The notes: generated from the letters alone by a model not told the origin. Positions 3,805-57,737 are shown, numbered from the stretch's first letter. The stretch is 57,857 bases of DNA from an uncultured bacterium (GCA_964399265.1 CAYNQF010000004.1:1-57857), one strand, 5' to 3'. Numbers and translations: made by a program.

Positions 3805-3868
3805 CCCCGCACGGAGCAGGGATCGCGTCCCGGGCAGGTCGGCCGGTGACGAGTGAGGAGAGCACCCT

Positions 3869-23785: not shown

Positions 23786-24956
<1,171 letters not shown>

Positions 24957-27685: not shown

Positions 27686-28323
27686 ACGCCTACGTCAAGG
27701 TGGCGCTCGTGTCGATCCTGCTCGCGCTCACGGCGGCGTACGTGTATCTGAACCCGCCACCGGACATGGAGGTCGGTGAGGGGAGGCTTGCCTCGTTCCC
27801 GATGGTCCTCGACGGCTGGAGCGGCATGGACCTGAGCTTCGACGAGGTCGTGGTCGAGGAGCTGAACGCCGACGACATGCTGACACGGAGGTACACGCGC
27901 GGCGCCGACGAGGTCTGGTTCGTCGTGATCTTCCATCAGAACGAGAGATACGGGGCCCATGAGCCGCTGGTGTGCTACCGCTCCCAGGGATGGACGGTGA
28001 CGGATCAGGGCACCAGGACCCTGAGGAGAGAGGGCGGCGAGTTCGACGCCAACTGGGTGACCGTGGAGTCGAAGGGCCAGACCAGGCTCGCTCTCTACTG
28101 GTGGTACACGGCCGGCGACCTGGCCACCGGCGACCGCGACAAGTTCATGGCGCGGATGGCGACGTCCGGCATCGTGTCGAACGTCACGTTCGGCGCGTTC
28201 GTAAGGATCTCTACGGTGGTGAGAAACGGCGACCTGGCCGGGGCCATGGACACGGTCACCGGCTTCGCCGAGCAAGCGCTCGTCTATCTTCCCGCCCTCT
28301 TCGAGGCGGACGTGGGGGACTAG
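27682..28323 (+). CDS. epsI: EpsI family exosortase-associated protein
   Basis: FPMVLDGWSG, HEPLVCYRSQGW, YWWY; GTGA-coupled to the exosortase gene. Confidence 0.88.
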   Translation: MNAYVKVALVSILLALTAAYVYLNPPPDMEVGEGRLASFPMVLDGWSGMDLSFDEVVVEELNADDMLTRRYTRGADEVWFVVIFHQNERYGAHEPLVCYRSQGWTVTDQGTRTLRREGGEFDANWVTVESKGQTRLALYWWYTAGDLATGDRDKFMARMATSGIVSNVTFGAFVRISTVVRNGDLAGAMDTVTGFAEQALVYLPALFEADVGD

Positions 28324-37600: not shown

Positions 37601-38422
37601 ATGAGAATCGCAACAGCCATCGCGATGATGGTGGTCGCCGTGATGTTCGCGTCCACCGCCTCGGCCAGCTACACCACCGAGGTCATGTTCTCCGGAGACG
37701 GATGGTATCTGGGTGACGCCGGCGCTAAGCCGGCGGGGGGATACGGTCTGTTCGAGGAGCTGACAACGTTCTACACCGTCCAGTCCGACATGCCATCGGG
37801 CTCGCACTACCTGTACTTCGCTCCGGACATCTCTCTTGTCTACCGTTTCGAGACGCCCGGCGACCCATCCGCCCCGGGACACTACGTCACCATCGACGAG
37901 AACGGGATCGACTTCGACGGTCAGGCGACTGCCTGGAATACGATGGGTCTCATCTGGGCCGACGGGTACGGTCTGGCGCTTGGCCAGCACGACGTGCCGG
38001 AGCTGAATCCCGGCGCGGTCGTCGGCGATCACGCATGGGATCTTGACGGAGGAGGCGCGGACTTCACCGCCACGGTCTGGGCGGCAAAGGGCCCCCAGGT
38101 TGTGTCTGCGGCGCTTCCGTTCAGGTCGGACTTCGCCATGCACAGATCCCTGACGTGGCTGTCGGGGCAGGAGATAGGAACCTGGTTCGGCGGCGGGCTG
38201 TCGCCGCTTCTGGGCGGGCTGCCTCTCGAAGGGCTGGGAGAGGCACTCAACGCGTTCGGGCCGTCGCTCCGGGAGTGGGACCCGGGCTACTACAACATCC
38301 AGTACGACGGCTCAATGAAGCTCAGGGCTGTCTCGGACCCGGTTCCTGAGCCGTCGACCATTCTGCTGTTGACCGGGGGCCTGGCGGCGCTCGTTGCCGT
38401 CAGACGGCGCCGGAGAGCCTAA
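37601..38422 (+). CDS. PEP-CTERM sorting domain protein
   Basis: Signal peptide; C-terminal VPEPST + hydrophobic helix + RRRRRA. Confidence 0.93.
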   Translation: MRIATAIAMMVVAVMFASTASASYTTEVMFSGDGWYLGDAGAKPAGGYGLFEELTTFYTVQSDMPSGSHYLYFAPDISLVYRFETPGDPSAPGHYVTIDENGIDFDGQATAWNTMGLIWADGYGLALGQHDVPELNPGAVVGDHAWDLDGGGADFTATVWAAKGPQVVSAALPFRSDFAMHRSLTWLSGQEIGTWFGGGLSPLLGGLPLEGLGEALNAFGPSLREWDPGYYNIQYDGSMKLRAVSDPVPEPSTILLLTGGLAALVAVRRRRRA

Positions 38423-38603: not shown

Positions 38604-39377
38604 ATGAAGCTACTCGTTCTCTTGGGTGTGACCGCGCTCATGATGGGGCTCGCGGCCCCGGCGGGCGCTACGCTGCTTTCCGACATGTTCGGCGTGACGC
38701 TGTCGGTCGACGCCACGGGTTCATTCGACAACTCGTGGGCGCCAATCCGTTCCACCACGGACTACCTGGTGGACGACAACTTCAGCCTGCACTTCATGAG
38801 GGCTCCGTACGGCGGCGAGCTGTTCGATATCGAGGCGATCTACTTCGATGACGACGCCGACAACGCATACGTCGCAGTCGTGGGCTCATTCCCGGTGCCT
38901 ATGGGGGCGGACTTTCTCGGGTTGACGATCGCGCCCGGAGACCTTGGCATAGACCTCGGGGCCGGGGCGCTCGACCTTGGAGTCGACGTCGACGGCGCCA
39001 CGGGCCTCGTGGCGGACACGGCGCCCGGTGACTGGTATCAGAGCAGCACCTTCTTCATCGCCGAGACCGGTCCGACCAACTTCGCCGGGGGCGTGGCGCT
39101 CGGCTACGCGTCGCTCGATATGTACGACTACGGACTCGTCGAGCGGGGTAACGGGACCTACGTCTTCGAGATGACGATCGACAAGGGCCTGCTCGGATCG
39201 CCGACCGTTGGCGATTACATCGGTCTCGACTGGACGATGGGTTGCAGGAACGACGTCATACACCTGGACGGCGACTTCGACGGTGACACACCGCCCGTCC
39301 CGGAGCCGAGCACGCTGCTTCTCCTGGGCAGCGGCATCATCGGCGCCGTCGGATTCGTTCGCAGGCGGAGGAAGTAG
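38604..39377 (+). CDS. PEP-CTERM sorting domain protein
   Basis: GGAGG RBS, signal peptide, acidic body, C-terminal VPEPST + hydrophobic helix + RRRRK. Confidence 0.93.
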   Translation: MKLLVLLGVTALMMGLAAPAGATLLSDMFGVTLSVDATGSFDNSWAPIRSTTDYLVDDNFSLHFMRAPYGGELFDIEAIYFDDDADNAYVAVVGSFPVPMGADFLGLTIAPGDLGIDLGAGALDLGVDVDGATGLVADTAPGDWYQSSTFFIAETGPTNFAGGVALGYASLDMYDYGLVERGNGTYVFEMTIDKGLLGSPTVGDYIGLDWTMGCRNDVIHLDGDFDGDTPPVPEPSTLLLLGSGIIGAVGFVRRRRK

Positions 39378-42674: not shown

Positions 42675-42858
42675 TGCCCCCACCCTTCCTTTTCGTTGTC
42701 TGCCCGGACCGACTTCGTGGGAGTCCGGGTGCGGTGTCGTCTCGCGAGATGCCTTTGGATCGGGTGCTCAGGCAGAGGTTCCGCCGGACCGTGTGCCCGG
42801 GCGGAAGCTCCGCGAGATTCTAGAGGGTCTCGGGGGCATCCCGCAACCGCGAATGAAA

Positions 42859-42874
42859 TGCAAGATGCGTACCA
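42859..42874 (-). promoter_or_regulatory. sigma54 (-24/-12) promoter of the minus-strand sugar-biosynthesis pair
   Basis: Minus strand reads TGGTACGCATCTTGCA, one mismatch to TGGCAC-N5-TTGCW. Confidence 0.7.
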
Positions 42875-42911
42875 GCGCCGCGCGGAGGCGGGGAGGCCCA
42901 CTCTCTCGGCC

Positions 42912-42940
42912 TTGACGCCGGGGGCGCGGCGTTCTAGACT
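42912..42940 (+). promoter_or_regulatory. sigma70 promoter of the M42-btpA-mbx operon
   Basis: TTGACG-N17-TAGACT. Confidence 0.65.
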
Positions 42941-43031
42941 GATTTCTATTCCCGATTCACAGTTCCGCGAGCGGGGTCGACCACCGCCGGCCGACCGACG
43001 CGGTGGTACCTCTCTCCACAAGGAGGCTGCG

Positions 43032-44099
43032 TTGGACAAGACTGAACTCATGTTCAAGGAACTCACAGAGGCCAACGGCATCTCGGGCTTCGAAGACGAG
43101 GTCGCCGACCTGATGGCGACCTACGTGAAGGACGTCGCCGACGTGCGCTACGACAACCTCGGCAGCCTCGTCGCGGAGAAGCGCGGCAAGAGCGCGAGCC
43201 CACGTGTCATGATCGCCGGCCACATGGACGAGATCGGCTTCATGGTGAAGACCGTGACGAAGGAGGGATTCATCAAGTTCCTTCCGATCGGCGGTTGGTG
43301 GGGGCACGTGGCTCTGTCGCAGCGGGTTCTCGTCAAGACCAGGAAGGGTGAGTTCCTGGGCGTCATCGGTTCGAAGGCGCCGCACATCCTGAAGGCGGAG
43401 GAGAGGTCGAAGGTCCTCGACATCTCGGACATGTACATCGACGTCGGCGCGACCGGCAAGTTCGACGTCGGGAAGACGCTCGGCGTCCGTCCCGGCGATC
43501 CCATCACTCCGATCTCCGAGTTCACCATCCTCGGCAACAAGAAGACGTATGCGGCGAAGGCCTGGGACGATCGTATCGGCGTCGCCGCGGTGATCGACGT
43601 GCTGCACAAGGTCGGCAAGAGTCATCCCAACACGCTGTTCGGCGTGGGAACGGTCCAGGAGGAGGTGGGGCTCCGCGGCGCCAGGACGAGCGCGAGCCTC
43701 GTCGACCCCGACGTCGCCTTCGCCATCGACGTGACGATCGCCACCGACACGCCCGGCTGCGACGGAGCGGGAGAGGATCTGGGCTCCGGCGTGGGCATCA
43801 TGGTGCTGGACGGCAGCGCGATTCCGAGCCGCCGGCTGCGCGACTTCGTCATCGAAGTCGCCGAGAAGGACAAGATCCCGTACGTCCTGACGGCGCTCGC
43901 CAGGGGCGGCACGGACAGCGGCACAATCCAGTTCAACAAGTCCGGCGTTCCCTGCCTGACGTTCGTCGTGCCGACGCGCTACATACACGGTCACGTCGGC
44001 GTGATCCACCGGAAGGATTACGACAGTCTCGTCAAGCTTCTGACCTCCGTCGTGAAGAGGCTCGACGCGAAGACGGTGGCGACCTTCCGCAGAGGTTAG
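43032..44099 (+). CDS. M42 family metallo-aminopeptidase (TET/FrvX-like)
   Basis: AGHMDEIG, KAWDDRIG, QEEVGLRGA, AIDVT, RYIHG; TTG start after AAGGAGG. Confidence 0.92.
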   Translation: MDKTELMFKELTEANGISGFEDEVADLMATYVKDVADVRYDNLGSLVAEKRGKSASPRVMIAGHMDEIGFMVKTVTKEGFIKFLPIGGWWGHVALSQRVLVKTRKGEFLGVIGSKAPHILKAEERSKVLDISDMYIDVGATGKFDVGKTLGVRPGDPITPISEFTILGNKKTYAAKAWDDRIGVAAVIDVLHKVGKSHPNTLFGVGTVQEEVGLRGARTSASLVDPDVAFAIDVTIATDTPGCDGAGEDLGSGVGIMVLDGSAIPSRRLRDFVIEVAEKDKIPYVLTALARGGTDSGTIQFNKSGVPCLTFVVPTRYIHGHVGVIHRKDYDSLVKLLTSVVKRLDAKTVATFRRG

Positions 44100-44213: not shown

Positions 44214-45023
44214 GTGGCGTTCGTCCAGGACGTGTTCGGCGTCGAGAAGGCGCTCATAGGCGTCGTCCACCTGCTGCCGCTGCCCGGGAGTCCGCTATGG
44301 GGCGGCGACATGGGCGCGGTGATGCGAAGGGCACTGGCGGACGCCTCGGCCCTGAGCGGTGCGGGCTTCGACGGCATCATACTGGAGAACTTCGGCGACG
44401 TCCCGTTCGCCCGGGGGTTCGCCGGGCGGGGCGCGGTCGCCGCGCTGGCGGCCGTCGGGTCGAGGGTCGCCGAGGCGGTCGATGCGCCGCTCGGGGTCAA
44501 CGTCCTCCGAAACGACGCCCTCTCCGCGGTGGGCGTGGGGGTGGCGATCGGGGCCGCCTTCGTTCGTGTGAACGTCCACGTCGGCGCGGCCGTATGCGAT
44601 CAGGGCATCGTGCAGGGCGGCGCCATGGAGACCATGCGCGCCGTGCGGGACATGGGCCCCGCGCTCCGCGTCGTGGCAGACGTGGACGTGAAGCACGCAT
44701 CCTCGCTGAGCGCCAGAGGCATCGAGGAGGAAGCGAAGGATGCCGTTGAGAGAGGGCTCGCGTCGGCGCTTATCGTGACCGGGAAGGCAACGGGAGCGTC
44801 CGTCGACGCGCACGACCTCGAGCGCGTGAAGGGGGCCGTCCCAGGCACGTCGGTCCTCGCGGGCAGCGGCGTCACCAGGGATACTCTGGGCGGAATCCTC
44901 ACGGGGTGTGACGGCATCATAATCGGCAGTAATGTTATGAAGGGCGGAAGGGCGGGCAACCAGGTCGACGCAGCGCGCGCGGCCGCTCTCGCGTCCACGT
45001 TCATGAACGAGGCCGGCCGTTGA
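44214..45023 (+). CDS. btpA: BtpA/SgcQ family protein
   Basis: GVVHLLPLPGSP, ENFGDVPF, GVNVLRND, ADVDVKH, IVTGKATG. Confidence 0.9.
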   Translation: MAFVQDVFGVEKALIGVVHLLPLPGSPLWGGDMGAVMRRALADASALSGAGFDGIILENFGDVPFARGFAGRGAVAALAAVGSRVAEAVDAPLGVNVLRNDALSAVGVGVAIGAAFVRVNVHVGAAVCDQGIVQGGAMETMRAVRDMGPALRVVADVDVKHASSLSARGIEEEAKDAVERGLASALIVTGKATGASVDAHDLERVKGAVPGTSVLAGSGVTRDTLGGILTGCDGIIIGSNVMKGGRAGNQVDAARAAALASTFMNEAGR

Positions 45024-45565
45024 GCAAGCGCAAGCCGAAGACCACACCGCGGTCGACCGAATCCACCGGCTCGTGGAGGCCCGTTGCGTGCTGGAGCGTG
45101 GCCCTGTTCGTGCTCTGGCTCATCCTGACTCGCAGTCTCGACCCGCAGGAACTGATGGTCGGCGCCGTGGCCTCGGTGCTCGTCTCGCTGCTCGTCCGGC
45201 AGGTGGCGGCCCGGCTCATCCTGTGCGGGGCCAGCTGGCCGAGACGCAGCGCATACCTGCTCGCGTACGTGCCCTACCTGTTCTGGAACATCGTCAAGTC
45301 CAACATCGACGTAGCGTCGCGCGTCGTGAACCCGCGACTGCCCATACGGCCCGGGATCGTGCGCGTCAAGACCAGGCTCAAGAGCCCACTCGGTCGGCTC
45401 CTCCTGACGAGTTCCATCACGCTGACGCCCGGGACCCTGACGGTCGACATCGAGGGCGACGATCTCTTCATTCATTGGATCGACGTCGAGGGCACCGACA
45501 CCGAGGCAATGTCGCGCAGGATCGTCGGGGGCTTCGAGCGATATCTGGAGGTGATCTTTGGCTAG
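45020..45565 (+). CDS. mnhE: MnhE/MrpE-like subunit (MbxA)
   Basis: IVKSNIDVA, IRPGIVRV, SITLTPGTLTVD, LFIHWID. Confidence 0.9.
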   Translation: MSKRKPKTTPRSTESTGSWRPVACWSVALFVLWLILTRSLDPQELMVGAVASVLVSLLVRQVAARLILCGASWPRRSAYLLAYVPYLFWNIVKSNIDVASRVVNPRLPIRPGIVRVKTRLKSPLGRLLLTSSITLTPGTLTVDIEGDDLFIHWIDVEGTDTEAMSRRIVGGFERYLEVIFG

Positions 45566-45818
45566 CCCGCTCATCGTCGCAGCCGCCGTCTTCGGCATGG
45601 CGGCGGTGGTCCTGTCGATGCTCCGGATGTTCCGCGGACCGACGGCGACCGACAGGGCTGTGGCGCTGGACGTGGTCACGCTGGTCCTGATGCCGACCAT
45701 GGTCGGTCTGGCCGTGTTCACCGGCCGCGTCATCTACATCGACGTCGCGCTGGTCTACGGACTTCTATCGTTCCTCGGCGTGATGTCGCTCGCGCGGTAC
45801 CTGGACAGGGGGCTCTGA
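45558..45818 (+). CDS. mnhF: MnhF/MrpF-like subunit (MbxB)
   Basis: RGPTATDRAVALD, DVALVY, LARYL. Confidence 0.9.
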   Translation: MASPLIVAAAVFGMAAVVLSMLRMFRGPTATDRAVALDVVTLVLMPTMVGLAVFTGRVIYIDVALVYGLLSFLGVMSLARYLDRGL

Positions 45819-45824
45819 GCCGGC

Positions 45825-46190
45825 ATGGCGGTCCTTCAGGTCATAGGCGGTGTAGTGGCGTTGGTGGGGTCGGCCTTCCTCTTCTTGGGGGCGCTGGGCA
45901 TCGTGCGCATGCCCGACCTCTACAACCGCATGCAGGCCGGCACGAAGGCGACGACGCTCGGATGCCTGCTCACACTGACCGGGCTCGGGCTGTACCAGCC
46001 GACGTGGCTGCCGAAGATCCTGCTCCTCGCACTGTTCGTACTCCTTACGAACCCCATCTCTTCACACGCGCTGGCGCGGTCGGCCCACAGGGCGGGTATC
46101 CCTCTCGTCCGTAAGTCGGTGGTCGACGCGCTTTCCGAGAGGGACGGCGGCGGTTCAGCCGCCGGCGGCGTCGACGAGGAGGAGCTGTGA
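45825..46190 (+). CDS. mnhG: MnhG/MrpG-like subunit (MbxC)
   Basis: GIVRMPDLYNRMQAGTKATTLG, TNPISSHALAR. Confidence 0.9.
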   Translation: MAVLQVIGGVVALVGSAFLFLGALGIVRMPDLYNRMQAGTKATTLGCLLTLTGLGLYQPTWLPKILLLALFVLLTNPISSHALARSAHRAGIPLVRKSVVDALSERDGGGSAAGGVDEEEL

Positions 46191-46423
46191 TAGTCGCCGA
46201 CGTCATCATCTGCGCGCTCATGCTGGCCGCTGCCGTGGCGGCGGTGGTGGTCAGAGGGCTCCTCTCGGCGATCATCCTGGTCGGCGTGGTGAGCCTGTTC
46301 GTGTCGTATCTCTTCCTCAGAATGGGCGCGCCCGACGTCGCGATGACGGAGGCGGCCATCGGCGCGGCGCTCAGCACGGTCGTGTTCCTGATAGCCCTCC
46401 GGCGCACCAGGAGGAAGGCATGA
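46187..46423 (+). CDS. DUF4040 / MbhD-like subunit (MbxD)
   Basis: APDVAMTEAAIGA motif; three TM helices. Confidence 0.85.
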   Translation: MIVADVIICALMLAAAVAAVVVRGLLSAIILVGVVSLFVSYLFLRMGAPDVAMTEAAIGAALSTVVFLIALRRTRRKA

Positions 46424-47124
46424 CACGGCGCCTCGTGACCATAGCCGTTCTCATCGGACTGGCGCTCGTGTGCTGGCAGATCGTGGCCGCCGGAACGCCG
46501 GCCGACCTTGGCGGTGTCAGCCGTCACTACGTCGAGCACGGCGTACAGGAGAACCGCGGCGCCAACCTCGTGACGTCCGTCGTGGTGAACTACCGAGGCC
46601 TCGACACGCTGGGCGAGGTCGCCGTCCTGTTCCTGTCGGTGAGCGGCGTCGCGTTCGTCCTGCGGAGGTTCCGCGGCGAGCCGGCGGCGAAGCCCACGCG
46701 GTCGAGCGAGATCGTGCAGACCGGCGCGCGACTGCTGGTCGGGCCGATGCTGCTCTTCGGGATCTACATCTTCGTCCACGGGCATCTGACGCCCGGAGGA
46801 GGTTTCCAGGGCGGAGCGGTCGTGGCGTCCGCCGTCCTCTTGCTGCTCCTGGCCGAGCGCGACAGACCTCTTCCGCACGCCTTCCTCTCGTGGCTCGAGT
46901 CGACCTCCGGCGCCGGGTTCGTCATCGTCGGGCTCATCGGGCTGGCGGTCGCCGGCTCGTTCCTGGCGAACAGGGGCGTCATCGGTCTCGGGGAGTGGAA
47001 CCGTCTCTTCTCGGCAGGCGTGATTCCCATCGTGTACACGCTCACGGGCCTCAAGGTCGGCTCCGAGCTGGCGACGCTCCTCGACGTGATGATGAGGGGC
47101 GAGGGGAAGGAGGGGGGCCGATGA
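46420..47124 (+). CDS. mnhB: MnhB/MrpB-like subunit (MbxF)
   Basis: NLVTSVVVNYRGLDTLGE, HGHLTPGGGFQGG. Confidence 0.9.
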   Translation: MTRRLVTIAVLIGLALVCWQIVAAGTPADLGGVSRHYVEHGVQENRGANLVTSVVVNYRGLDTLGEVAVLFLSVSGVAFVLRRFRGEPAAKPTRSSEIVQTGARLLVGPMLLFGIYIFVHGHLTPGGGFQGGAVVASAVLLLLLAERDRPLPHAFLSWLESTSGAGFVIVGLIGLAVAGSFLANRGVIGLGEWNRLFSAGVIPIVYTLTGLKVGSELATLLDVMMRGEGKEGGR

Positions 47125-47501
47125 ACCCCGGCGGCCTCTATCTCGCCAGCGGAGCCGCGCTCATCGTGATCGGCATCGCCTGCGCGGTTCTCAAGAGGAA
47201 CCTGCTCAGGATGGTGCTCGGCTTTGCCATACTGGACGCCGGCGTGCACCTCTTCATCGCCGCGATGGGCTATCTGCCTGGGCGCACGGCCCCGATCGTC
47301 GACGAGGCCAACATGTTCAGCGACGTGGCGACGATGGCGGTCGACCCGACGCGCTTCGTCGACCCGGTGCCTCAGGCGCTCGTGCTGACCGCCATCGTCA
47401 TCGGCGTCGGCGTGACCGCGCTCATGCTGGCGTACGTCGTGCGGCTCTACGCACGCGAGGGTACGCTCGACGTCCGTGAGTTCAGGAGGCTCAAGTGGTG
47501 A
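47121..47501 (+). CDS. mnhC: MnhC/MrpC-like subunit (MbxG)
   Basis: DPVPQALVLTAIVIG, LDVREFRRLKW; ATG at 47121. Confidence 0.9.
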   Translation: MNPGGLYLASGAALIVIGIACAVLKRNLLRMVLGFAILDAGVHLFIAAMGYLPGRTAPIVDEANMFSDVATMAVDPTRFVDPVPQALVLTAIVIGVGVTALMLAYVVRLYAREGTLDVREFRRLKW

Positions 47502-50500
47502 GTCCCGTCCTCTTCGTGGCGATACCTCTGGCCACCGCCTTCCTGCTCCCGCTCGTGACCTCCGGTCGCCGCGGAAGCGGCCGGGCGCGAGCGGTCCAGG
47601 CGGTCGTGCTTGCCGCGGTGCTGGCGGGAGTCGCGTATCTCGTTCCTCCGCTGCTTCGCGGCGGCGCGCCGATCGAGGTCACCACGGGCGGCTGGCCTCC
47701 TCCGCTCGGCATCAACCTGCGTTTCGGACCCGCCGAGGCGGCCCTACTGGCACTCGCAGCGGCGACCGCTCTCGGAGCGGCGCTGCGTGGGGCGGCGCGC
47801 GTCGGACGCGGCGACCGCCCGTCTTCGTCGCGCGGACGCGGGCGCGACCTCGACGATGACGCGGTGGCCGCAGGTACGGCCGACAGGGCGCCGGTGCTGG
47901 AACTCCTGATGTTCGTAGGCGCGGCGGGCCTAATCATGACCCGCGACATCTTCAACACGTTCGTGTTCCTCGAGATCGCGTCGATATCGACCTACGCGCT
48001 CGCGGTCGCGGGGCGGGAGCGCTCCGGTCTCGAGGCCGGGTTCAAGTACATGTTCCTGGGCGCCGTCTCGTCCGCCCTGATGCTCATGGCCATCGCGGTG
48101 CTCTACCGGCTGACGGGCACGCTCAACATCGACGGCATGAGCGAGGCGCTACTGCGCATTTCGACGCCGGCCTTCCCTGTCCCCGCGCTTCAGGTCGCGC
48201 TGGCGTTCCTGCTCGTGGCCTTCTTCGTGGAACTCAAGGTCTTCCCACTGAACGGTCCCGCGCTGGACATGTACGCGGGCGTTGAGCCCGGCGTCATGGC
48301 TCTGGTCGGCGGAACGACCCTCATGGCGGCGGTGTTCGCATTCTGGAAGGTGCTTCCGTTCTTTCACGGGGCGGCCTGGTCGACCGTGGTGATGGCGGTC
48401 GGGGCGTTGAGCTTCCTGGTCGGCAACGGTTTCGGCACGAGGCAGCGCAGCGTCAGGCGCATGCTCGGCTACTCGACGTCCGCCCAGGTCGGGCTCGTCG
48501 TGATGCTCCTGCCGCTCGTGGTGAGGGGAGTGGTCGGGCCCGAGATCCCCGTCATCCTGCTGGCGAGCCACGTGCTCGGCAAGACGGGCGTCCTCTGGCT
48601 GGTCGGCAGGCACGGAGGAGAGACCCTGGACGACTGGCGCGGGGCGTTCGCCGGCTCGCCGCTCGCGAGATTCTCGCTGACCACGCTCGTGCTGACGCTG
48701 GCCTGTCTGCCACCGTTCCCCGGGTTCTGGGGCAAGTGGTACGCGCTCAGCTCGCTATCCAGAACCGGGCACGTGTGGCTCGTGGCGGCCGTGCTCCTGG
48801 GCTCTTTCTTCGAGTTCGTCTACATGTTCGGATGGTTGAGGAGAGTGCACTCGCCGGCCCCCGAGGCGGACTCCGCAGGGCAGGCGACCCGGAACGCGAC
48901 CGACATCGAGCGCGCGACCAACGACGAGCCCGAACTCGAGGCCGCCGGTCCGGACGACAGACCGGTCGTCTTCGTCCACGTCTTCGCGTTCGCCTCACTG
49001 GCCATAGGTTTCCTCATGATGCGGGGGCAAGCGTTGCTTCCGCCGGCGCCGGTGATGCTGCTCGCGGGCGCGGGGCTCGCGCTCCTGGCGTTGCGCGCGC
49101 TCCCCGGCCGCGCGCGCGAGGCCCTCGTGCTGCTCACCGTGGTCGGCGTGGGCTGGATGCTCTCGAGTTCGGGGCTTCTGTCCCTCGCCGACGTGCGCGG
49201 GCTCTTCACCGCGGTCGTCCTTCTCGGCGGCACGCTGGCGGCGCTCTCATCGTACGCCGTCCCCGCCCCGGGCCGGTCGTACGATGGGCTCTTCCTCATT
49301 CTGATGTCCTCGCTCGTGATGCTCGTCCGCGCCGAGTCGTTGCTCATCTTCTTCCTGGCGTGGGAGGCGATGACCTGGACGTCCTACCTCCTGGTCGCGG
49401 GCGGACGGCGCGGAGCAGCCCCGGCGTACTCGTACATGCTGTTCTCCGGAGCGGCCGGGTTCCTCGTCATGGGCGGGCTCATGATAGCGGCCGGCCGCGG
49501 CATCACGTCGATCACCGACGTGTCGATGCTCACGGGCTCCGCCGCCGCGTGGGCGGCGGTGCTCCTGGGCGCCGGGTTCGCGATCAAGGCGGCGTCGGCC
49601 GGAGCGCACATCTGGGCGCCGGGCGCCTACGCCGAGGCTCCGGACGTCTTCTCGGCGTTCATCTCAGGCGTGCTGTCCAAGATGCCGCTCTTCGGCATCG
49701 TCGTGTTCGCCGCCCGTCTGGTCGCGGGCCCGGGGGTCCCGAGGTTCTGGGGAGTCGAGCCTTCCTACGTGCTCGCGTGGCTCGGCGCCATCACGGCCTT
49801 CGGCATGACGCTCCTGGCCGCGCTGCAGGAGGACGCGAAGCGCCTCCTCGCGTACTCGTCGGTCGGGCAGATCGGCTACGCGGTCGTGGGACTCGCGCTC
49901 TTCACGCCGCTCGGATGGACCGCGGCGCTCTACCACGTCGTCAACCACTTCCTCATCAAGATGCTGCTCTTCCTGGCCGTGGCCGGCGTCGTCTACCGTA
50001 CAGGCACGACCGACATGCATCGCATGGGCGGGCTCATCAAGAAGATGCCGGCGTCGTACATCTCGGTCCTGATCGGTATCATCGCCCTCTCGGGCGTGCC
50101 GCCGCTCTCGGGCTTCGCGGGGAAGTGGCTGCTCTACTCGGCGCTGCTGGAGAAGGGATGGTACTTCGTCGCGGGGCTGTCGATGTTCGCCTCGGTGATA
50201 GCGTTCCTGTACCTCTTCAGGCTGATACACTCGATCTTCCTAGGACAGCTCAAGCCCGAGCACCGCAACGTCAAGGAGGCGCCGCTTCCCATCGTCACCG
50301 CCCAGGCCATACTCGTGTTGGGCATCATGGGCATCTCGGCGTTCCCGCAGGCCGTGCTTCGGCCCGTGGCCGGGATCGTGGAGAGGGCGCTCGGCTCTCC
50401 CGGCATACTGCTCGCGGCAGACGGCTCGCTCCAGGTCGGCTACGGCTACCTGAACGCGTTCGCCGTGATGGCGCTCGTCATGGTGCTCTTCGCGATCTTC

Positions 50501-50812
50501 TTCGCGTTCCTCCTGTTCCTCGGCCCGAAGACGAGGAAGGTGAAGCAGCTCGACATCGTGTACGCCGGCGAGATGCCTCCGGCGCCCCAGGAAATACACC
50601 ACGCATACGACTTCTACCGTCCATACAAGAGGGCGTTCTCGCCGCTCCTGCGCGTGTCCGCCGGGCGCGGATGGGGCCGGACCTCCGCCTGGGCGGGGAG
50701 GGCCGCCGAGGTCGGGCGGCGCATGTACACGGGTGACGGGCAGTCCTATCTGGTCTACGCGCTGGCGTTCGCCGTGCTCCTCGCGGTGGTGAGGGTGTGG
50801 TTCCTGAGATGA
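47498..50812 (+). CDS. Fused double antiporter-like subunit (MbxH + MbxH'; MrpD/NuoM-L family)
   Basis: Two complete proton-antiporter modules in one ORF: FLEIAS/ELKVFP/LGYSTSAQ/PPFPGFWGK and AWEAM/IKAAS/LAYSSVGQ/HFLIK/PPLSGFAGK. Confidence 0.85.
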   Translation: MSPVLFVAIPLATAFLLPLVTSGRRGSGRARAVQAVVLAAVLAGVAYLVPPLLRGGAPIEVTTGGWPPPLGINLRFGPAEAALLALAAATALGAALRGAARVGRGDRPSSSRGRGRDLDDDAVAAGTADRAPVLELLMFVGAAGLIMTRDIFNTFVFLEIASISTYALAVAGRERSGLEAGFKYMFLGAVSSALMLMAIAVLYRLTGTLNIDGMSEALLRISTPAFPVPALQVALAFLLVAFFVELKVFPLNGPALDMYAGVEPGVMALVGGTTLMAAVFAFWKVLPFFHGAAWSTVVMAVGALSFLVGNGFGTRQRSVRRMLGYSTSAQVGLVVMLLPLVVRGVVGPEIPVILLASHVLGKTGVLWLVGRHGGETLDDWRGAFAGSPLARFSLTTLVLTLACLPPFPGFWGKWYALSSLSRTGHVWLVAAVLLGSFFEFVYMFGWLRRVHSPAPEADSAGQATRNATDIERATNDEPELEAAGPDDRPVVFVHVFAFASLAIGFLMMRGQALLPPAPVMLLAGAGLALLALRALPGRAREALVLLTVVGVGWMLSSSGLLSLADVRGLFTAVVLLGGTLAALSSYAVPAPGRSYDGLFLILMSSLVMLVRAESLLIFFLAWEAMTWTSYLLVAGGRRGAAPAYSYMLFSGAAGFLVMGGLMIAAGRGITSITDVSMLTGSAAAWAAVLLGAGFAIKAASAGAHIWAPGAYAEAPDVFSAFISGVLSKMPLFGIVVFAARLVAGPGVPRFWGVEPSYVLAWLGAITAFGMTLLAALQEDAKRLLAYSSVGQIGYAVVGLALFTPLGWTAALYHVVNHFLIKMLLFLAVAGVVYRTGTTDMHRMGGLIKKMPASYISVLIGIIALSGVPPLSGFAGKWLLYSALLEKGWYFVAGLSMFASVIAFLYLFRLIHSIFLGQLKPEHRNVKEAPLPIVTAQAILVLGIMGISAFPQAVLRPVAGIVERALGSPGILLAADGSLQVGYGYLNAFAVMALVMVLFAIFFAFLLFLGPKTRKVKQLDIVYAGEMPPAPQEIHHAYDFYRPYKRAFSPLLRVSAGRGWGRTSAWAGRAAEVGRRMYTGDGQSYLVYALAFAVLLAVVRVWFLR

Positions 50813-51750
50813 ACGCGGTCTTGGACATAGACCTCCGCATCGTCGTTGCCGCCGCGCTCAGCGTGGTCGGCGGCATCGCGTACGGACTCCTGATCGGCGG
50901 CGCCATCCGTGTCGTGATGGCGCGCATCCAGAGCCGCATCGGTCCGCCGATCTGGCAGCCGTACATCGACCTCGCCAAGATCTTCTTCCAGAGGACGTCG
51001 ATCAGGCACGGGATGATGTTCTACCTGGCGCCGGCCTTCAGGATGACGGGAGGCGTGGGGCTCTACCTCCTCATACCGGTGGTCGTCGGCGTTCCCGGCC
51101 TGTCCGGCTTCTCGTTCTCGGGCGACCTACTGCTCGTGCTCTACTTCATGTTCTTCGGCTGCCTGGGCATGGCCCTGGGCGCGGGCGAGAGCGGACACCC
51201 ACACGCAGTGCTGGCGGTGTCGAGGGGCCTCTCGCAGATGTCCTCGTACGAGCTTCCGTTCTCGCTGGCGGTGATCGCGCTGGCGGCGCACGCGGGGACG
51301 TTCTCGATAGCGGGCATTGTCGAGGCGCAGACCGGCGGCGTGTCGCACTGGTTCCTCTTCGCGAACCCGTTCGCGGCCGTCGCGGGACTCCTCGCGTTCC
51401 TCGGCATGCAGATGTACTCGCCGTTCGACATCGTGCTCGCTCCCCAGGAGATCCCGATCGGCCCGCCGACCGAGTACAACTCGGCGTTCATGACGCTCAT
51501 GATGTCGGGCCGGGCCATCTTCGGCGTCGCGAAGTGCGTGCTCTACATGGACCTCTTCCTGGGCGGCGCAGGCAGCGTGCCCGAGGCGATGCTGAAGGTC
51601 TTCCTGCTCTACTTGTGGCCGGTGTTCGTGGGCGCCGTCTTCCCGCGCTTCAGGGCCGAGCAGTCGGTGCGTTTCTTCCTGAAGTGGCCGACCATCGCCG
51701 GCGTGCTGGCCATCGTGTTCGGGATCGTGATGAGGGGGAGGATGGGATGA
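50809..51750 (+). CDS. mbxM: NuoH-like membrane anchor (MbxM)
   Basis: RIQSRIGPPIWQPYIDLAK, SYELP, SPFD..APQEI..GPPTEY. Confidence 0.88.
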   Translation: MNAVLDIDLRIVVAAALSVVGGIAYGLLIGGAIRVVMARIQSRIGPPIWQPYIDLAKIFFQRTSIRHGMMFYLAPAFRMTGGVGLYLLIPVVVGVPGLSGFSFSGDLLLVLYFMFFGCLGMALGAGESGHPHAVLAVSRGLSQMSSYELPFSLAVIALAAHAGTFSIAGIVEAQTGGVSHWFLFANPFAAVAGLLAFLGMQMYSPFDIVLAPQEIPIGPPTEYNSAFMTLMMSGRAIFGVAKCVLYMDLFLGGAGSVPEAMLKVFLLYLWPVFVGAVFPRFRAEQSVRFFLKWPTIAGVLAIVFGIVMRGRMG

Positions 51751-52478
51751 GCGACGACAGGACGAAGAGAGACGACGGACCGCCCGTCGGCGGCGTGCGC
51801 GGCGACGGATCGACTGAGGGCGGCGTGAGCGCCGACGGACCGCCCGTGAGCCCGGTCATGGGCCCGTACGAGCCGGTCGAGGCGCCTCCACTTCCGGAGT
51901 TCGACTCGTACTGCTATCTGGGCGCCGACGAAGCGCCGCAGCCGCTCGAGTACCGGGAGGCGTTTGCGAAGATCAAGAACTGGTGTCGCGCGAACTCGCT
52001 CTGGATCATGGCGTACGGCACGGGCTGTGGCGCCATCGAGCTCCGTCCGCTCATGACGAGCCGGTTCGACATCGCAAGGTTCGGGATGGCTCCGAGGCCC
52101 ACTCCGCGACAGTCGAACGTTCTCATCATCGGCGGATACCTGTCGCTCAAGACCCTGAAGAGGGTGATCCGTTCGTACGAGCAGATGCCTGCGCCGAAGT
52201 GGGTCGTGGCGCTGGGCTCGTGCACGATCAACGGCGGCATGTACTGGGACTCGTACTACACCATCAACAGGCTCGACCTCTACCTGCCGGTCGACGTCTA
52301 CGTGTCGGGCTGCATGCCCAGGCCGGAGGCGGTGATCGCGGGGTTCCAGAGTCTGATGGACAAGATCAAGCGCGGAGAGGCGAACGGGTGGAACGAGTAC
52401 CTGGAGAACCTCGCCGAGTACAAGGCGAACCAGAAACGCGCGATCCGCGACTGGAACATGCCGGACTACAACTGGTAG
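51747..52478 (+). CDS. mbxJ: NuoB-like Fe-S small subunit (MbxJ)
   Basis: TGCGAIE, LMTSRFD, PRQ, GSCTINGG, VDVYVSGCMPRPE. Confidence 0.88.
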   Translation: MSDDRTKRDDGPPVGGVRGDGSTEGGVSADGPPVSPVMGPYEPVEAPPLPEFDSYCYLGADEAPQPLEYREAFAKIKNWCRANSLWIMAYGTGCGAIELRPLMTSRFDIARFGMAPRPTPRQSNVLIIGGYLSLKTLKRVIRSYEQMPAPKWVVALGSCTINGGMYWDSYYTINRLDLYLPVDVYVSGCMPRPEAVIAGFQSLMDKIKRGEANGWNEYLENLAEYKANQKRAIRDWNMPDYNW

Positions 52479-52555
52479 GCGGGGAGGCGCCGCCCGCGGT
52501 CTGACCGGTCGAGGCCGGTGCGGGGCGGCCGGCGGGTCGCTCGAGGGAGCACGAA

Positions 52556-53098
52556 GTGGCTGACGACATCCTGAAGGAACTCCAGCGCAGGTTCAAGCTC
52601 TCGAACGCGGAGACGAAGCGGCCCGACCTCCGGGCGGCGGCGGTGCGCCCGGGCGCGGTTCGCGACGTCCTCGAGTGGCTCAGGCGGGAGAGCGGCCACA
52701 TGCAGCTCACGCTCGTCTCCGCGGTCGACTGGATCGAGGACGGCGAGTTCGAGATCGTATGGCTCGTGACCGACCCGAACGCGCACACGACCCTCATGCT
52801 CTCGACCAGGGTGGCTCGCGACAGGGCCTCGCTTCCCACGGTCCACGACCTGTGGCCGCAGGCGGTCACGTACGAACAGGAACTGAACGAGATGTTCGGC
52901 ATCCTCTTCGAGGGGAGCCCGAGACAGGGCGTGCCGTTCATACTAGAGGGCTGGCGCGACCTTCCGCCGATGCGGCGCGACTTCGACACGGCGGCCTACT
53001 CGCTCTCGCACTACGAGGGCAGGCCGGGCAGGCGCTACATCGACGCCAGGACGTTCATAGGTGAGAAGAGCGGCGAGAAGGGCTACTCGAATGAGTGA
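52556..53098 (+). CDS. mbxK: NuoC-like subunit (MbxK)
   Basis: AVDWIE, TYEQELNEMFGILFEG, PPMRRDF. Confidence 0.88.
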   Translation: MADDILKELQRRFKLSNAETKRPDLRAAAVRPGAVRDVLEWLRRESGHMQLTLVSAVDWIEDGEFEIVWLVTDPNAHTTLMLSTRVARDRASLPTVHDLWPQAVTYEQELNEMFGILFEGSPRQGVPFILEGWRDLPPMRRDFDTAAYSLSHYEGRPGRRYIDARTFIGEKSGEKGYSNE

Positions 53099-54278
53099 GC
53101 GCGAACCGAAGCGGCCGACCGGGGACACGGCCCCCAGCGGGGCGGCGCCGCGGGCCGGGGCCCCCGACCCCACGAAGGAGGTCCATCTCTGGTTCGGGCC
53201 CCAGCACCCGGGCGTGACCGGCAACATGTCGGTAGAGGCCTGGTTGCAGGGCGACACCATCCTTCGCGGCATCACGCACGTCGGCTATCTCCACAGGGGA
53301 TTCGAAAAGCTGATGGAGCGCCGCACGTTCATACAGTCGTTCCCGATCGTCTGCCGCATATGCGTTCCGGAGCCGGACACCAACGAGTACCTGCTCGCGG
53401 CCGGTGTCGAAGAGATCTCGGGGCTCGCGGCCGAGGTGCCCGAGCGCGCAAGATGGCTCCGCACGCTCACGCTCGAGATGTCGCGTCTCAGCGCGACGCT
53501 CATGGTGCTCGGCGGCCACATCGGCTCGATGGGTCTCGGACCCGTGCCGCAGTGGATGATGACGCTCCGTGACTTCGTCCTCGACAGCTTCGAGGAACTC
53601 TCCGGCCACCGCATCTATCACATGTACATCGTCTACGGCGGCGTGAGGCGGGGTGTGCCCGACGGCTTCGGGCAGAGGCTCGAGACCACGCTCCGGGCCA
53701 TCGAGGAGAGGCTGCCCTGGATCGACCGCCTCATGTTCGACTCGGCCGTGTTCCGCAAGCGCGCGATCGGCGTGGGCTACGTGCCGCCCGAGTGGGCCGA
53801 CGAGATGGCGATAACCGGCCCTGTCCTGCGCGCGATGGGCGTGGCCCGCGACCTGCGCAAGGACAGCCCCTACGAGATGTACGGGAGGCTCGAGTTCGAC
53901 GTGGTGACCGAGACCGGTTCCGACATCTTCACGCGCGCGCTCGTGAGGCGCCGCGAGATCGAGCAGTCCGTGGGCCTCATCCGACAGATGCTCGAGATGA
54001 TGCCGAAAGAAGGGCCCGTGGCCGCGCGCGTCCCGAACTTCATGAACTGGCGGGTGGCTCCCGGCATGACCTACGTGAGGGCCGAGGCGAGCCGCGGGGA
54101 GATGGGATACTTCGTGGTGACGGACGGCTCCGACAAGCTCCGTCGCGTCAACGTGCGCGGACCTTCGTACGTCAATGGGGTGAGTCTCCTCGAGCGACTG
54201 CTGCCCGGGACCAACATCTCGGACCTGGCGCCGCTCATGGTCTCCCTCCAGACGTGTCCCCCCGAGATAGAGAGGTGA
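53091..54278 (+). CDS. mbxL: NuoD-like large subunit of Mbx/Mbs type (MbxL)
   Basis: GPQHPG, GYLHRGFEK, RICVPE and TCPPEIER (2 of the 4 NiFe Cys retained), EASRGEMG. Confidence 0.88.
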   Translation: MSEREPKRPTGDTAPSGAAPRAGAPDPTKEVHLWFGPQHPGVTGNMSVEAWLQGDTILRGITHVGYLHRGFEKLMERRTFIQSFPIVCRICVPEPDTNEYLLAAGVEEISGLAAEVPERARWLRTLTLEMSRLSATLMVLGGHIGSMGLGPVPQWMMTLRDFVLDSFEELSGHRIYHMYIVYGGVRRGVPDGFGQRLETTLRAIEERLPWIDRLMFDSAVFRKRAIGVGYVPPEWADEMAITGPVLRAMGVARDLRKDSPYEMYGRLEFDVVTETGSDIFTRALVRRREIEQSVGLIRQMLEMMPKEGPVAARVPNFMNWRVAPGMTYVRAEASRGEMGYFVVTDGSDKLRRVNVRGPSYVNGVSLLERLLPGTNISDLAPLMVSLQTCPPEIER

Positions 54279-54282
54279 CGGG

Positions 54283-56055
54283 ATGAGCCTCAAGCACGTC
54301 ATATCCCCGTTCTCGGCGTGGGTCAGGGCGTTCACCAAGCCCTACACGGTCCCCAAGGCCAAGACGATGAGGCCGGGCGCGCAGCGCTACCGCGGATGGC
54401 ACGTGAACGACACCGACAAGTGCGTCGGCTGCGGCACGTGCGCGAGCATATGCCAGAACGAGGCGATCGACATGGTCGAGGTCGAGTCTCCCGAGACCGG
54501 GGACTCCGGGCTCCGCCCGCGAGTCGACTACGGCCGCTGCTGCTGGTGCGCGCTCTGCGTCGACGTGTGTCCGTCGGGCTCGCTCGGCATGTCGAACGAG
54601 TACAACTGGGTGGACGCCGACGCCGACGTCTTCCGGTACACGCCGGGCGTCGAGGAGAAGCCGTGGGACTCGCACGACAAGGGTTGGAGGCAGAGCGGTG
54701 ACGAGTTCAGCGTCTTCGATCCCTCGCGCGTCCCCATGCCGATGCTCCCGGCGGAGGAACGGACCGGGAGCTGGGCCGAGGTCGTGCTCGGATACGCCGA
54801 GGATGAGGCGCGCAGGGAAGCCTCACGCTGCGTCCAGTGCGGCATCTGTGTTGCCGCCTGTCCCGCCCACATGCACATACCGGATTACATCGCCGCGATC
54901 AGGGACGGGAACTACGCCGAGGCGGTGCGCGTCATATACGACAACAACCCGATGCCGGAGATGTGCGGCATGGTCTGCACACGGAAGTGCGAGACCGTCT
55001 GCAGCGTGGGACTCAAGGGGGACCCCATCGCGATCCGTTGGCTCAAGCGGTTCGCCACGGAGCGGTTCGACGACCTGCGCTCCGTCATCGACACGAAGGC
55101 GAGCGAGGTGGGGAAGGGACATTCGGTCGCGGTCGTCGGAGGCGGTCCATCCGGGTTCACTGTCGCGCATTACCTGGCGCTCCGCGGGTTCGACGTGACG
55201 ATCTATGAGCGCCTGCCGAAGCTGGGCGGCGCCACGTACTCGGGCATACCGCGCTACCGGTTCCCCACACCGTCGCTCGACAAACAGGTCGCGCTCCTCG
55301 AAGGCCTCGGGGTCAGGATCGTGACGGACCACGAGGTCGACGAGAAGGAGTTCGCGAGGCTCAGAGAGGAGAACCTGGCGGTCTTCGTCGGCACGGGGCT
55401 CATGAAGCCGTACTATCTGAACGTCCACGGTGAGGACCTGCCGGGCGTCATCTACGCGCTCGACCTGCTTCGCGACGTCAATCTGGGCAAGGACGTCGAA
55501 GTGGGGAAGAAGGTCGTGGTGGTCGGCGGCGGCAACGTCGCCATCGACGCGGCCCGCGTGAGCAGGCGGCTCGGCGCGGCGGTCACGATCGCCTACAGGC
55601 GCAGGCATGAGGACATGCCCGCCGACGACGAGGAGATCGAGGACGCCGAGGCGGAGGGCGTCGAGATCATCACCCAGAGCATCCCGCTCGAGGTGAAGCA
55701 GACAGAGGACGGACGTCTCAACATGGTCTGGGGTCCGGCCAAGATGCTTCCGGCGGAGCCCGGCAAGCGTCCGAGGCCTCAGCTCATTGAGGGCGTTCGG
55801 AACGACATGGTGGTCGACCGCGTCATCGTCGCGATCGGTCAGGGTCCCGACCTCTCCTGGATGGGAGACGGCCCGGCGGGCGAGATATCGGAGGACCGGG
55901 GCTGGATCAAGGTCGACGAGCACGGCGAGACGCCGCTCTCGGGCGTGTTCGCCGGTGGCGACCTCGTGAACTCGGTCGCGGACGCGATCTCCGCCATAGC
56001 CGATGGACTGCGAGCCGTCGACGGCATAACAGGACTTGCGGAGAAACGCCGCTGA
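54283..56055 (+). CDS. Fusion of a NuoI/MbxN-like 2x[4Fe-4S] ferredoxin and a GltD/NfnB/SudA-like FAD-NAD(P)H oxidoreductase
   Basis: CVGCGTCASICQ, CCWCALCVDVCP, then CVQC..CPAH..CGMVC..C, GGGPSG, GGGNVAIDAA, YRR, FAGGD. Confidence 0.9.
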   Translation: MSLKHVISPFSAWVRAFTKPYTVPKAKTMRPGAQRYRGWHVNDTDKCVGCGTCASICQNEAIDMVEVESPETGDSGLRPRVDYGRCCWCALCVDVCPSGSLGMSNEYNWVDADADVFRYTPGVEEKPWDSHDKGWRQSGDEFSVFDPSRVPMPMLPAEERTGSWAEVVLGYAEDEARREASRCVQCGICVAACPAHMHIPDYIAAIRDGNYAEAVRVIYDNNPMPEMCGMVCTRKCETVCSVGLKGDPIAIRWLKRFATERFDDLRSVIDTKASEVGKGHSVAVVGGGPSGFTVAHYLALRGFDVTIYERLPKLGGATYSGIPRYRFPTPSLDKQVALLEGLGVRIVTDHEVDEKEFARLREENLAVFVGTGLMKPYYLNVHGEDLPGVIYALDLLRDVNLGKDVEVGKKVVVVGGGNVAIDAARVSRRLGAAVTIAYRRRHEDMPADDEEIEDAEAEGVEIITQSIPLEVKQTEDGRLNMVWGPAKMLPAEPGKRPRPQLIEGVRNDMVVDRVIVAIGQGPDLSWMGDGPAGEISEDRGWIKVDEHGETPLSGVFAGGDLVNSVADAISAIADGLRAVDGITGLAEKRR

Positions 56056-57662: not shown

Positions 57663-57737
57663 GCTGGCGTAGCTCAACGGTAGAGCGCCTCACTTGTAAT
57701 GAGGGGGTTGGGGGTTCGATTCCTCTCGCCAGCTCCA
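57663..57737 (+). tRNA. tRNA-Thr (TGT)
   Basis: Full cloverleaf: GCTGGCG/CGCCAGC acceptor stem, GCTC/GAGC D-stem, CCTCA-CTTGTAA-TGAGG anticodon arm, TTCGA loop, encoded CCA. Confidence 0.97.

Follow-up and report, generated by a model that had tools for sequence, protein, structure and literature searches.

Two kinds of described system stand closest to the genes analyzed here. The first is the sulfane-sulfur reductase complex MBS of Pyrococcus furiosus, in which a [4Fe-4S] cluster held by three cysteines, with one open iron, has been proposed as the site of polysulfide reduction, and the two cysteines that remain in MbsL have been proposed to be non-catalytic (PMC7684303). This enzyme was first modelled as a ferredoxin:NAD(P)+ oxidoreductase and was later found to reduce polysulfide. 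The second is the group of 'mbx-like' operons of Thermotoga and proteobacteria (Degli Esposti 2015, PMC4758237), which have a gltD-related flavoprotein at the position of NuoI; vestigial cysteines and a frequent terminal rubrerythrin gene were noted in that study, and a ferredoxin:NAD(P)+ activity was proposed. In Thermotoga maritima, mbxA is up 4.4-fold after the addition of S0 and a role as sulfur reductase has been proposed (PMC9431562), while a preprint on Mesotoga regards Mbx as an enzyme of NADP:ferredoxin oxidoreductase type. Related complexes appear under the name 'Ehr' in metagenome papers, which describe their role as unknown or as needing an experimental test, and HydDB does not count Ehr among the hydrogenases, on the ground that these complexes do not metabolize H2. 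Here we describe a locus at positions 45020-56055 of a 57,857-nucleotide stretch of DNA from an uncultured bacterium (GCA_964399265.1, CAYNQF010000004.1:1-57857; this whole stretch is called the window below). The locus encodes a bacterial, flavoprotein-fused form of Mbx/MBS, that is, a complex-I-like ion-translocating membrane oxidoreductase of a form that has been described before.

The locus consists of 12 tightly packed open reading frames (ORFs) on the plus strand in the order MbxA-B-C-D-F-G-H/H'-M-J-K-L-N (Table 1). Their junctions are overlaps of 4-8 nucleotides or gaps of 4-6 nucleotides, the sole exception being a 77-nucleotide gap between J and K, and the G+C content of the operon is like that of the rest of the window. 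All 12 ORFs were assigned by Pfam (subunits A through G by Pfam only, the others also by comparison with solved structures), and the assignments agree with the gene order read in the first-pass annotation of this DNA. The genes are predicted to specify a complete Mrp-type antiporter module (A, B, C, D, F and G; NCBIfam names F 'cation/H+ antiporter subunit B' at 190 bits), two pump subunits, the membrane anchor M and a peripheral arm of J, K, L and N. P. furiosus MBS has the same set of subunits in the same order, including two antiporter-like pumps and the Mrp module, and it is the closest solved match for H, H', M, J, K, L and the N-terminal part of N. The two differ in that H and H' are one polypeptide in our locus, J has an N-terminal extension of about 70 amino acids and no equivalent of Cys25, L has an extra cysteine (in the motif CRIC), and N continues into an NfnB/GltD-like NAD(P)H flavoprotein fused to it, whereas its MBS counterpart is a 208-amino-acid ferredoxin acceptor. 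Their hosts differ as well, a hyperthermophilic archaeon in the one case and a bacterium of about 67% G+C in the other. The first-pass annotation was right to call the complex complete, but it overlooked both the H/H' fusion and the fusion of N to a flavoprotein.

Subunit L contains the sequence C88-R-I-C91-V-P-E94 (53352-53378) and ends with C389-P-P-E392-I-E-R-stop (54255-54275). The second cysteine of each NiFe-binding pair is a glutamate, only two of the four NiFe cysteines are left, and there is no cleavable C-terminal extension, all of which had been read correctly before (as RICVPE, TCPPE and a terminal EIER). MbsL and L share RICVPEPD, and both end in CPP(E/D)I(E/D)R. The two proteins are 41% identical, and L matches 6u8y_L over its full length with 302.5 bits, compared with 219.5 for Nqo4, 114.9 for MbhL and 116.1 for HycE. 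Where Nqo4 has its quinone ligands H38 and Y87, the aligned residues of L are Thr and Val, respectively. With the NCBIfam models L scores exactly at the NuoD cut-off (360 bits) and reaches 277 bits with FpoD, whose cut-off is 600. We built a neighbour-joining tree (372 columns, 200 bootstraps) from the window L, 25 of its bacterial relatives, MbsL, MbhL, HycE, Nqo4 and E. coli NuoD (FpoD and EchE are not among the references). MbsL and all of the bacterial sequences form one clade with 100% bootstrap support, NuoD and Nqo4 form another (96%), and the hydrogenases lie outside. This is the grouping that the first-pass annotation had expected, and together with the solved-structure matches and the three-cysteine motif of J (below) it upholds the view that the complex is of Mbx/MBS type and neither a NiFe hydrogenase nor complex I. 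Like the Ehr complexes, a loose umbrella term for relatives of the group 4 hydrogenases without NiFe ligands, our locus lacks the metal site, but its sequence allows a more precise placement, in the MbsL-related clade. It had also been foreseen that automated annotation would label such genes Nuo or Mrp; NCBIfam hits do so, and in source annotations L goes under 'NADH-quinone oxidoreductase subunit D', while N is either a 'glutamate synthase small chain' or an 'FAD-dependent oxidoreductase'.

The two glutamates of L are kept across the family. We considered the extra cysteine of L (C88-R-I-C91, a CxxC arrangement) or C389 as a new redox or metal site and rejected both as family-wide features; Bacteroidales and Chlorobiota proteins have TS(I/V)RMC, and C389 is replaced by tyrosine in about half of the loci.

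Subunit J matches MbsJ (6u8y_J) with 214 bits and without gaps over 162 amino acids (the next-best family scores 143 bits). Its Cys95, Cys160 and Cys190 correspond to C28, C93 and C123 of MbsJ, so all three cluster ligands are kept, in a shortened loop of equal length in the two proteins, and glycine stands where MbsJ has the non-ligand C25. J has G-C where NuoB of complex I has the tandem C-C of the N2 motif, and the combination G(T/S)GCG / GSCTINGG / GCMPRPE is near-universal across 80 related loci. The proximal [4Fe-4S] cluster of J would thus have only three cysteine ligands, as in MBS. The N-terminal extension of J (amino acids 1-73, 51744-51960), which P. furiosus MbsJ does not have, contains the motif DSYCYLG at 51903-51923, whose cysteine is usually preceded by an aromatic residue in the family. 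This cysteine was considered as the missing fourth ligand of the J cluster and rejected; 45 of 70 relatives have it, the remainder having Ser, Leu or no residue in its place, and so it is not essential. Since it, the CRIC cysteine and the C-terminal cysteine of L are each kept in only part of the family, we assign none of them a family-wide role. The best solved match of subunit K is 6u8y_K (86.6 bits; next 42 bits).

In the membrane arm, H and H' are a single 1105-amino-acid ORF with no stop codon separating the halves. Residues 5-306 resemble MbsH (6u8y_H, 175.7 bits for the whole chain, which includes its cross-match to the second half), and residues 562-1097 resemble MbsH' including its C-terminal part (6u8y_X, 220 bits; the next-best family scores 155). 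The motifs WE, SGVLSK, H..NH and GKW, which we take to mark the positions of the pump residues, are identical in the alignment with the MBS chains. An Arg/Gly/Asp/Ser-rich insertion of low complexity at about amino acids 100-130 of H was not seen in the relatives inspected. Subunit M has 6u8y_M as its best solved match (134.5 bits), followed by a NuoH at 50.7 bits.

Complex I (NDH-1) has a homologous J/K/L/M/N core, antiporter-like pumps and a nucleotide-oxidizing flavoprotein that feeds an iron-sulfur wire, as our locus is predicted to have. Its electron input is the NuoEFG unit, which uses flavin mononucleotide (FMN), whereas that of our locus is a GltD-type module with flavin adenine dinucleotide (FAD); in addition, the locus lacks H38/Y87 and the tandem-cysteine N2 motif, and it has an Mrp-type distal module and no NuoA, NuoJ or NuoL. 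We scanned the larger ORFs of the window, about 47 in number and covering most of it (the regions 2573-3868, 21342-22384 and 23786-24956 and the smaller ORFs fall outside this set), and found among them no hyp, nuoA, nuoJ, nuoE, nuoF or nuoG gene and no NuoL-type subunit. The first-pass annotation had listed hyp and nuoA/J/K/E/F as absent, which holds for these ORFs except that a NuoK homologue is present as subunit G.

Subunit N is 590 amino acids long in one ORF and is not a plain NuoI-like subunit. Residues 8-108 resemble MbsN (6u8y_N, 77.6 bits; next-best family 46) and carry the motifs CVGCGTCASIC and CWCALCVDVCP (90 bits with the NCBIfam NuoI model). Residues 149-583 align end-to-end with T. 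maritima NfnB (4ylf_B, 270 bits), and they also match the large subunit of P. furiosus NfnI/SudA (5jca_L, 262 bits) and the small chains of glutamate synthase [NADPH] (187-196 bits; 6s6s_G 196). This flavoprotein part contains CVQCGICVAACP and CGMVCTRKCETVC and has every one of the eight cysteines expected for two NfnB-type clusters; it also carries GGGPSG, a motif for FAD, and the dinucleotide motif GGGNVAID with YRR after it. By its motifs, N as a whole is expected to bind FAD and NAD(P)H and to hold four [4Fe-4S] clusters, and a 35-amino-acid linker joins its NuoI-like part directly to the iron-sulfur domain of the flavoprotein. The NfnB/SudA/GltD family thus shares with residues 149-583 the cysteines for two [4Fe-4S] clusters and the FAD and NAD(P)H motifs (196-270 bits), but in our locus this domain is covalently joined to a subunit of a membrane complex. 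No NfnA-like partner (the PyrK-like subunit with FAD and [2Fe-2S]) occurs among the scanned window ORFs, and no gene for a GltB partner lies nearby. NCBIfam has a full-length model for the fused N protein, under the name 'putative oxidoreductase'; the exact N protein found no match in public assemblies. The bacterial 'mbx-like' operons (PMC4758237) have an Mrp module, Nuo-like B/C/D/H proteins, a GltD-type flavoprotein and vestigial NiFe cysteines in L, as our locus does. They differ in that our locus keeps the NuoI-like domain and fuses it to the flavoprotein instead of replacing it (Thermotoga being compared by description only), that no terminal rubrerythrin gene is found in the window, and that the lineage, probably Candidatus Eisenbacteria, is another one.

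A scan with the L alignment, using one genome per species, matched at least 600 stretches, of which at least 593 are confirmed relatives; the locus counts, gene orders and taxa given here refer to the best 80 of these. All 80 loci have the same gene order. Among the 70 loci whose downstream DNA extends far enough, 67 have the flavoprotein fused to N, and H is fused to H' in 48 of 59. The fusion of N is the bacterial norm, and the complex is neither rare nor special to this bacterium. Two of the three loci without it belong to Sulfurovaceae/Sulfurovum (L072 and L073) and encode a 126-amino-acid N with no flavoprotein domain; of the bacterial loci in the set, these two bear the strongest likeness to the ferredoxin-type MBS of archaea. 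The third exception (L007) was classed as split. The carriers include Acidobacteriota (Thermoanaerobaculia, Aminicenantes), Gallionellaceae, Bacteroidales, Spirochaetes, Cloacimonadota, Gammaproteobacteria (Thiodiazotropha, Thioalkalivibrio, Chromatiaceae, Methylococcales, Lysobacterales), Chlorobiota/Ignavibacteria (Melioribacter), Calditrichaceae, Marinimicrobia, Hydrothermota, Sulfurovum and cultured Rhodobacterales (Aliiruegeria, Sinisalibacter, Tropicimonas). The Methylococcales, Gallionellaceae and Thiodiazotropha carriers are metagenome-assembled genomes (MAGs) so labelled, and fermenter lineages also carry the fused complex.

Several kinds of gene recur beside the operon in these relatives. 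A rubrerythrin/ferritin-like gene of about 160 amino acids directly follows N in 21 loci (for example L002, L003, L006-L009, L019 and L027). In 12 loci (for example L018, L035, L042, L045 and L049; mainly Bacteroidales, with some Ignavibacteria-type and unclassified MAGs) N is followed by a dihydroorotate-dehydrogenase-like flavoprotein of about 330 amino acids, which together with N would supply all of the domain types of dihydropyrimidine dehydrogenase. Genes for Rex (6 loci), Crp/Fnr (11) and CBS-domain (7) proteins also flank the operon. None of these five kinds of neighbour is present in the window.

What might such a complex do? By its sequence and by analogy with MBS, we consider the chances somewhat better than even that it is an ion-translocating reductase which is linked to NAD(P)H and acts on an acceptor other than quinone, possibly sulfane sulfur. 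Electrons would pass between NAD(P)H, FAD, the four [4Fe-4S] clusters of N and the three-cysteine cluster of J along one wire, the fused flavoprotein taking the role that NuoEFG has in complex I. At the J cluster a non-quinone substrate would be reduced in the chamber formed by L, J and M, most likely a sulfane-sulfur or polysulfide-type compound if the analogy with MBS holds, and this redox step would drive H+ or Na+ through H, H' and the Mrp module. The retention of the fusion and gene order across many bacterial lineages (67 of 70) argues that the parts work as one functional unit. Since NAD(P)H and polysulfide lie close together in potential, the enzyme may pump few ions or run reversibly; this would fit the presence of the complex in sulfur- and iron-oxidizing lithotroph lineages, which by our own reasoning need reverse electron flow.

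A number of points weigh against this reading. We infer both the acceptor and the direction of electron flow. With NAD(P)H at about -320 mV and polysulfide at about -260 to -270 mV, the reaction yields little energy for two pumps and an Mrp module. To our knowledge the Rhodobacterales, Methylococcales and Gallionellaceae carriers are not sulfur respirers, and sulfur-metabolism genes were not found among the scanned ORFs of the 57-kb window. The vestigial cysteines of L vary in the family, the C-terminal one (Cys389) being tyrosine (HTYPPEIER) in about half of the loci, and N may still have a ferredoxin site. Finally, the literature searched contains no purified or assayed bacterial Mbx. The first-pass annotation had gone further and concluded that the organism respires sulfane sulfur. 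That claim was drawn from analogy alone and took no account of the NAD(P)H-dependent flavoprotein fused to N, a fusion that makes another electron partner likely; the claim is weakened by the presence of the fused complex in cultured Rhodobacterales and other lineages and by the lack of flanking sulfur genes among the scanned ORFs. Sulfur respiration by this organism would be better treated as a hypothesis than as a finding.

There is also a more tentative idea, which we regard as possible though rather doubtful: the bacterial Mbx::GltD complex might not be a sulfur respirer at all but a reversible NAD(P)H-linked energy converter acting on a non-quinone substrate at an open-iron [4Fe-4S] site. 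If so, lithotrophs or aerobes might use the ion gradient to make NADPH, or might split NADPH electrons to obtain reduced ferredoxin, and the complex would be a second, unrecognized 'complex I analogue' with a GltD-type input module.

Of the other explanations the one that survives best, although we think it unlikely, is an Rnf-like, ion-translocating ferredoxin:NAD(P)+ oxidoreductase, in which electrons from ferredoxin would enter the clusters of N and the GltD-like module would reduce NAD(P)+. This is the original Mbx model, the activity that PMC4758237 proposes for the bacterial gltD-containing operons, and the way in which the Mesotoga preprint treats Mbx. It would make use of the retained MbsN-like domain, which is the ferredoxin acceptor in MBS, and the Rex regulators that flank the operon in six related loci point to NAD(P)H balance. 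Under this scheme, however, electrons would move through N only, leaving without net turnover the J cluster and the L/J/M chamber, which are the best-conserved parts and the place where enzymes of the complex I type link redox chemistry to pumping, and the P. furiosus enzyme for which the model was first drawn up proved to be a polysulfide reducer.

Two further possibilities appear improbable to about the same degree. One is a plain ferredoxin-dependent MBS that respires polysulfide as in the Thermococcales. All of the core subunits are MBS-like and the three-cysteine cluster is kept, as it would require, but N is fused to a complete module for NAD(P)H, FAD and two [4Fe-4S] clusters in nearly all relatives, the short MBS-like N being confined to the two Sulfurovaceae loci, and the carriers include cultured Rhodobacterales and other lineages generally regarded as aerobic; the lack of sulfur genes nearby among the scanned ORFs also speaks against it. 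The other is an alternative NAD(P)H:quinone oxidoreductase, in effect a complex I with a GltD-type input module. Many of the carriers are quinone-using respirers, the M/J/L chamber is homologous to the quinone chamber, and the NuoD model scores L exactly at its cut-off. Against this, the two Nqo4 quinone ligands are Thr and Val in L, J has 'GC' rather than 'CC' and only three cluster ligands, L groups with MbsL and not with NuoD, and NuoA-, NuoJ- and NuoL-type subunits were not found among the scanned ORFs.

Membrane-bound flavin-based bifurcation has a still smaller chance of being correct. Here the NfnB-type FAD would split the electrons of NADPH, sending some to ferredoxin by way of the flavoprotein's own two clusters and others to an acceptor of higher potential by way of those of N and J; N would stand in for NfnA. 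The fused domain is indeed closer to bifurcating NfnB proteins (4ylf_B, 5jca_L and 5vj7_A, about 262-270 bits) than to the small chains of glutamate synthase (about 190), and carriers include lithotroph and methanotroph lineages, in which low-potential ferredoxin would by our own reasoning be useful. On the other hand, the NfnA-like partner is missing from the scanned window ORFs, the 35-amino-acid linker between N and the iron-sulfur domain of the flavoprotein suggests one linear wire, and no sequence signature distinguishes the bifurcating members of the family from the non-bifurcating ones. Last, the locus has its overall architecture in common with MBH, and MbhL and HycE are homologues of L, but the metal-binding motifs rule out a group 4 membrane-bound [NiFe] hydrogenase, since Glu takes the place of two NiFe cysteines out of four, and the score of only 115 bits with MbhL, the position of L outside the hydrogenase branch and the lack of hyp genes among the scanned ORFs leave it virtually no chance.

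The locus is then an ordinary, intact copy of a complex present in at least several hundred bacterial species and labelled Nuo or Mrp by annotation pipelines. The part of it equivalent to the quinone site resembles the site of the sulfur-reducing MBS, and yet its input module is predicted to bind NAD(P)H, and the taxa that carry it include generally aerobic lineages and lithotrophs. Knowledge of the substrate and the electron direction from one cultured carrier would correct the annotation of all of the carrier genomes, and it would also show how machines of the complex I type swap their input modules. When the metabolism of Candidatus Eisenbacteria is reconstructed, the locus should be entered neither as complex I nor as a hydrogenase, and it should not be taken to prove that sulfur is respired.

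Table 1. Predicted genes of the Mbx/MBS-type locus, and selected features of the polysaccharide/exosortase locus of the same window
Feature	Coordinates	Strand	Family or evidence
Subunit A (MnhE/MrpE-like)	45020..45565	+	PF01899 MNHE, E=1.4e-43
Subunit B (MrpF-like)	45558..45818	+	PF04066, E=5.6e-15
Subunit C (MnhG-like)	45825..46190	+	PF03334, E=6.9e-26
Subunit D (MbhD family)	46187..46423	+	PF13244, E=3e-22
Subunit F (MbsE equivalent), MbhE and MnhB domains	46420..47124	+	PF20501, PF04039
Subunit G (NuoK/MrpC family)	47121..47501	+	PF00420, E=5.6e-25
H-H' fusion, 1105 amino acids	47495..50812	+	two Proton_antipo_M domains
Subunit M (NuoH-like membrane anchor; part of the substrate chamber)	50809..51750	+	PF00146
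Subunit J (NuoB-like; proximal [4Fe-4S] cluster)	51744..52478	+	NuoB family (Pfam), 6u8y_J
Subunit K (NuoC-like)	52556..53098	+	PF00329
Subunit L (NuoD/NiFe large-subunit homologue without NiFe site)	53091..54278	+	NuoD family (Pfam), 6u8y_L
Subunit N, N-terminal NuoI/MbsN-like domain, 2x[4Fe-4S]	54283..54642	+	Fer4, 6u8y_N
Subunit N, C-terminal NfnB/SudA/GltD-like flavoprotein, same ORF (54283-56055, 590 amino acids)	54727..56055	+	Fer4_20 and Pyr_redox_2
Exosortase EpsH	26798-27685		in polysaccharide/exosortase locus
DUF3485	27682-28323		in polysaccharide/exosortase locus
Sigma-54 activator	30819-31961		in polysaccharide/exosortase locus
Two PEP-CTERM proteins	37601-38422, 38604-39377		in polysaccharide/exosortase locus

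The other ORFs scanned in the window include those for RadA, IspDF, GltX, Ddl, a large exosortase/PEP-CTERM polysaccharide locus, an M42 peptidase, a BtpA-family protein and CysS. The best named relative of CysS is 84% identical and is labelled Candidatus Eisenbacteria, from which the window probably derives. The IspD and IspF functions are predicted to be fused in one bifunctional protein (1364-2572). The polysaccharide export/exosortase locus (6766-41098) contains Wza/Wzc-like genes, many glycosyltransferase genes, an O-antigen-ligase-like gene and genes for fibronectin-III/FlgD-Ig proteins, in addition to those given in table 1. The M42 aminopeptidase (42696-44099) has an N-terminal extension of about 150 amino acids.

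Immediately upstream of the operon lies a BtpA/SgcQ-family gene (44214-45023), whose stop overlaps the start of subunit A by 4 nucleotides and which, by this arrangement, may be co-translated with the operon; among the relatives the overlap recurs only in the nearest, L001. The closest genome locus among the matches listed (an uncultured bacterium MAG, 78% for L) has the same order of M42 peptidase, btpA, operon and cysS. Scans for promoters and terminators gave nothing above the shuffled background. On the downstream side, cysS begins 17 nucleotides after N and is followed by a tRNA-Thr(TGT) gene at 57663-57737, the only feature returned by the tRNA and Rfam scans.

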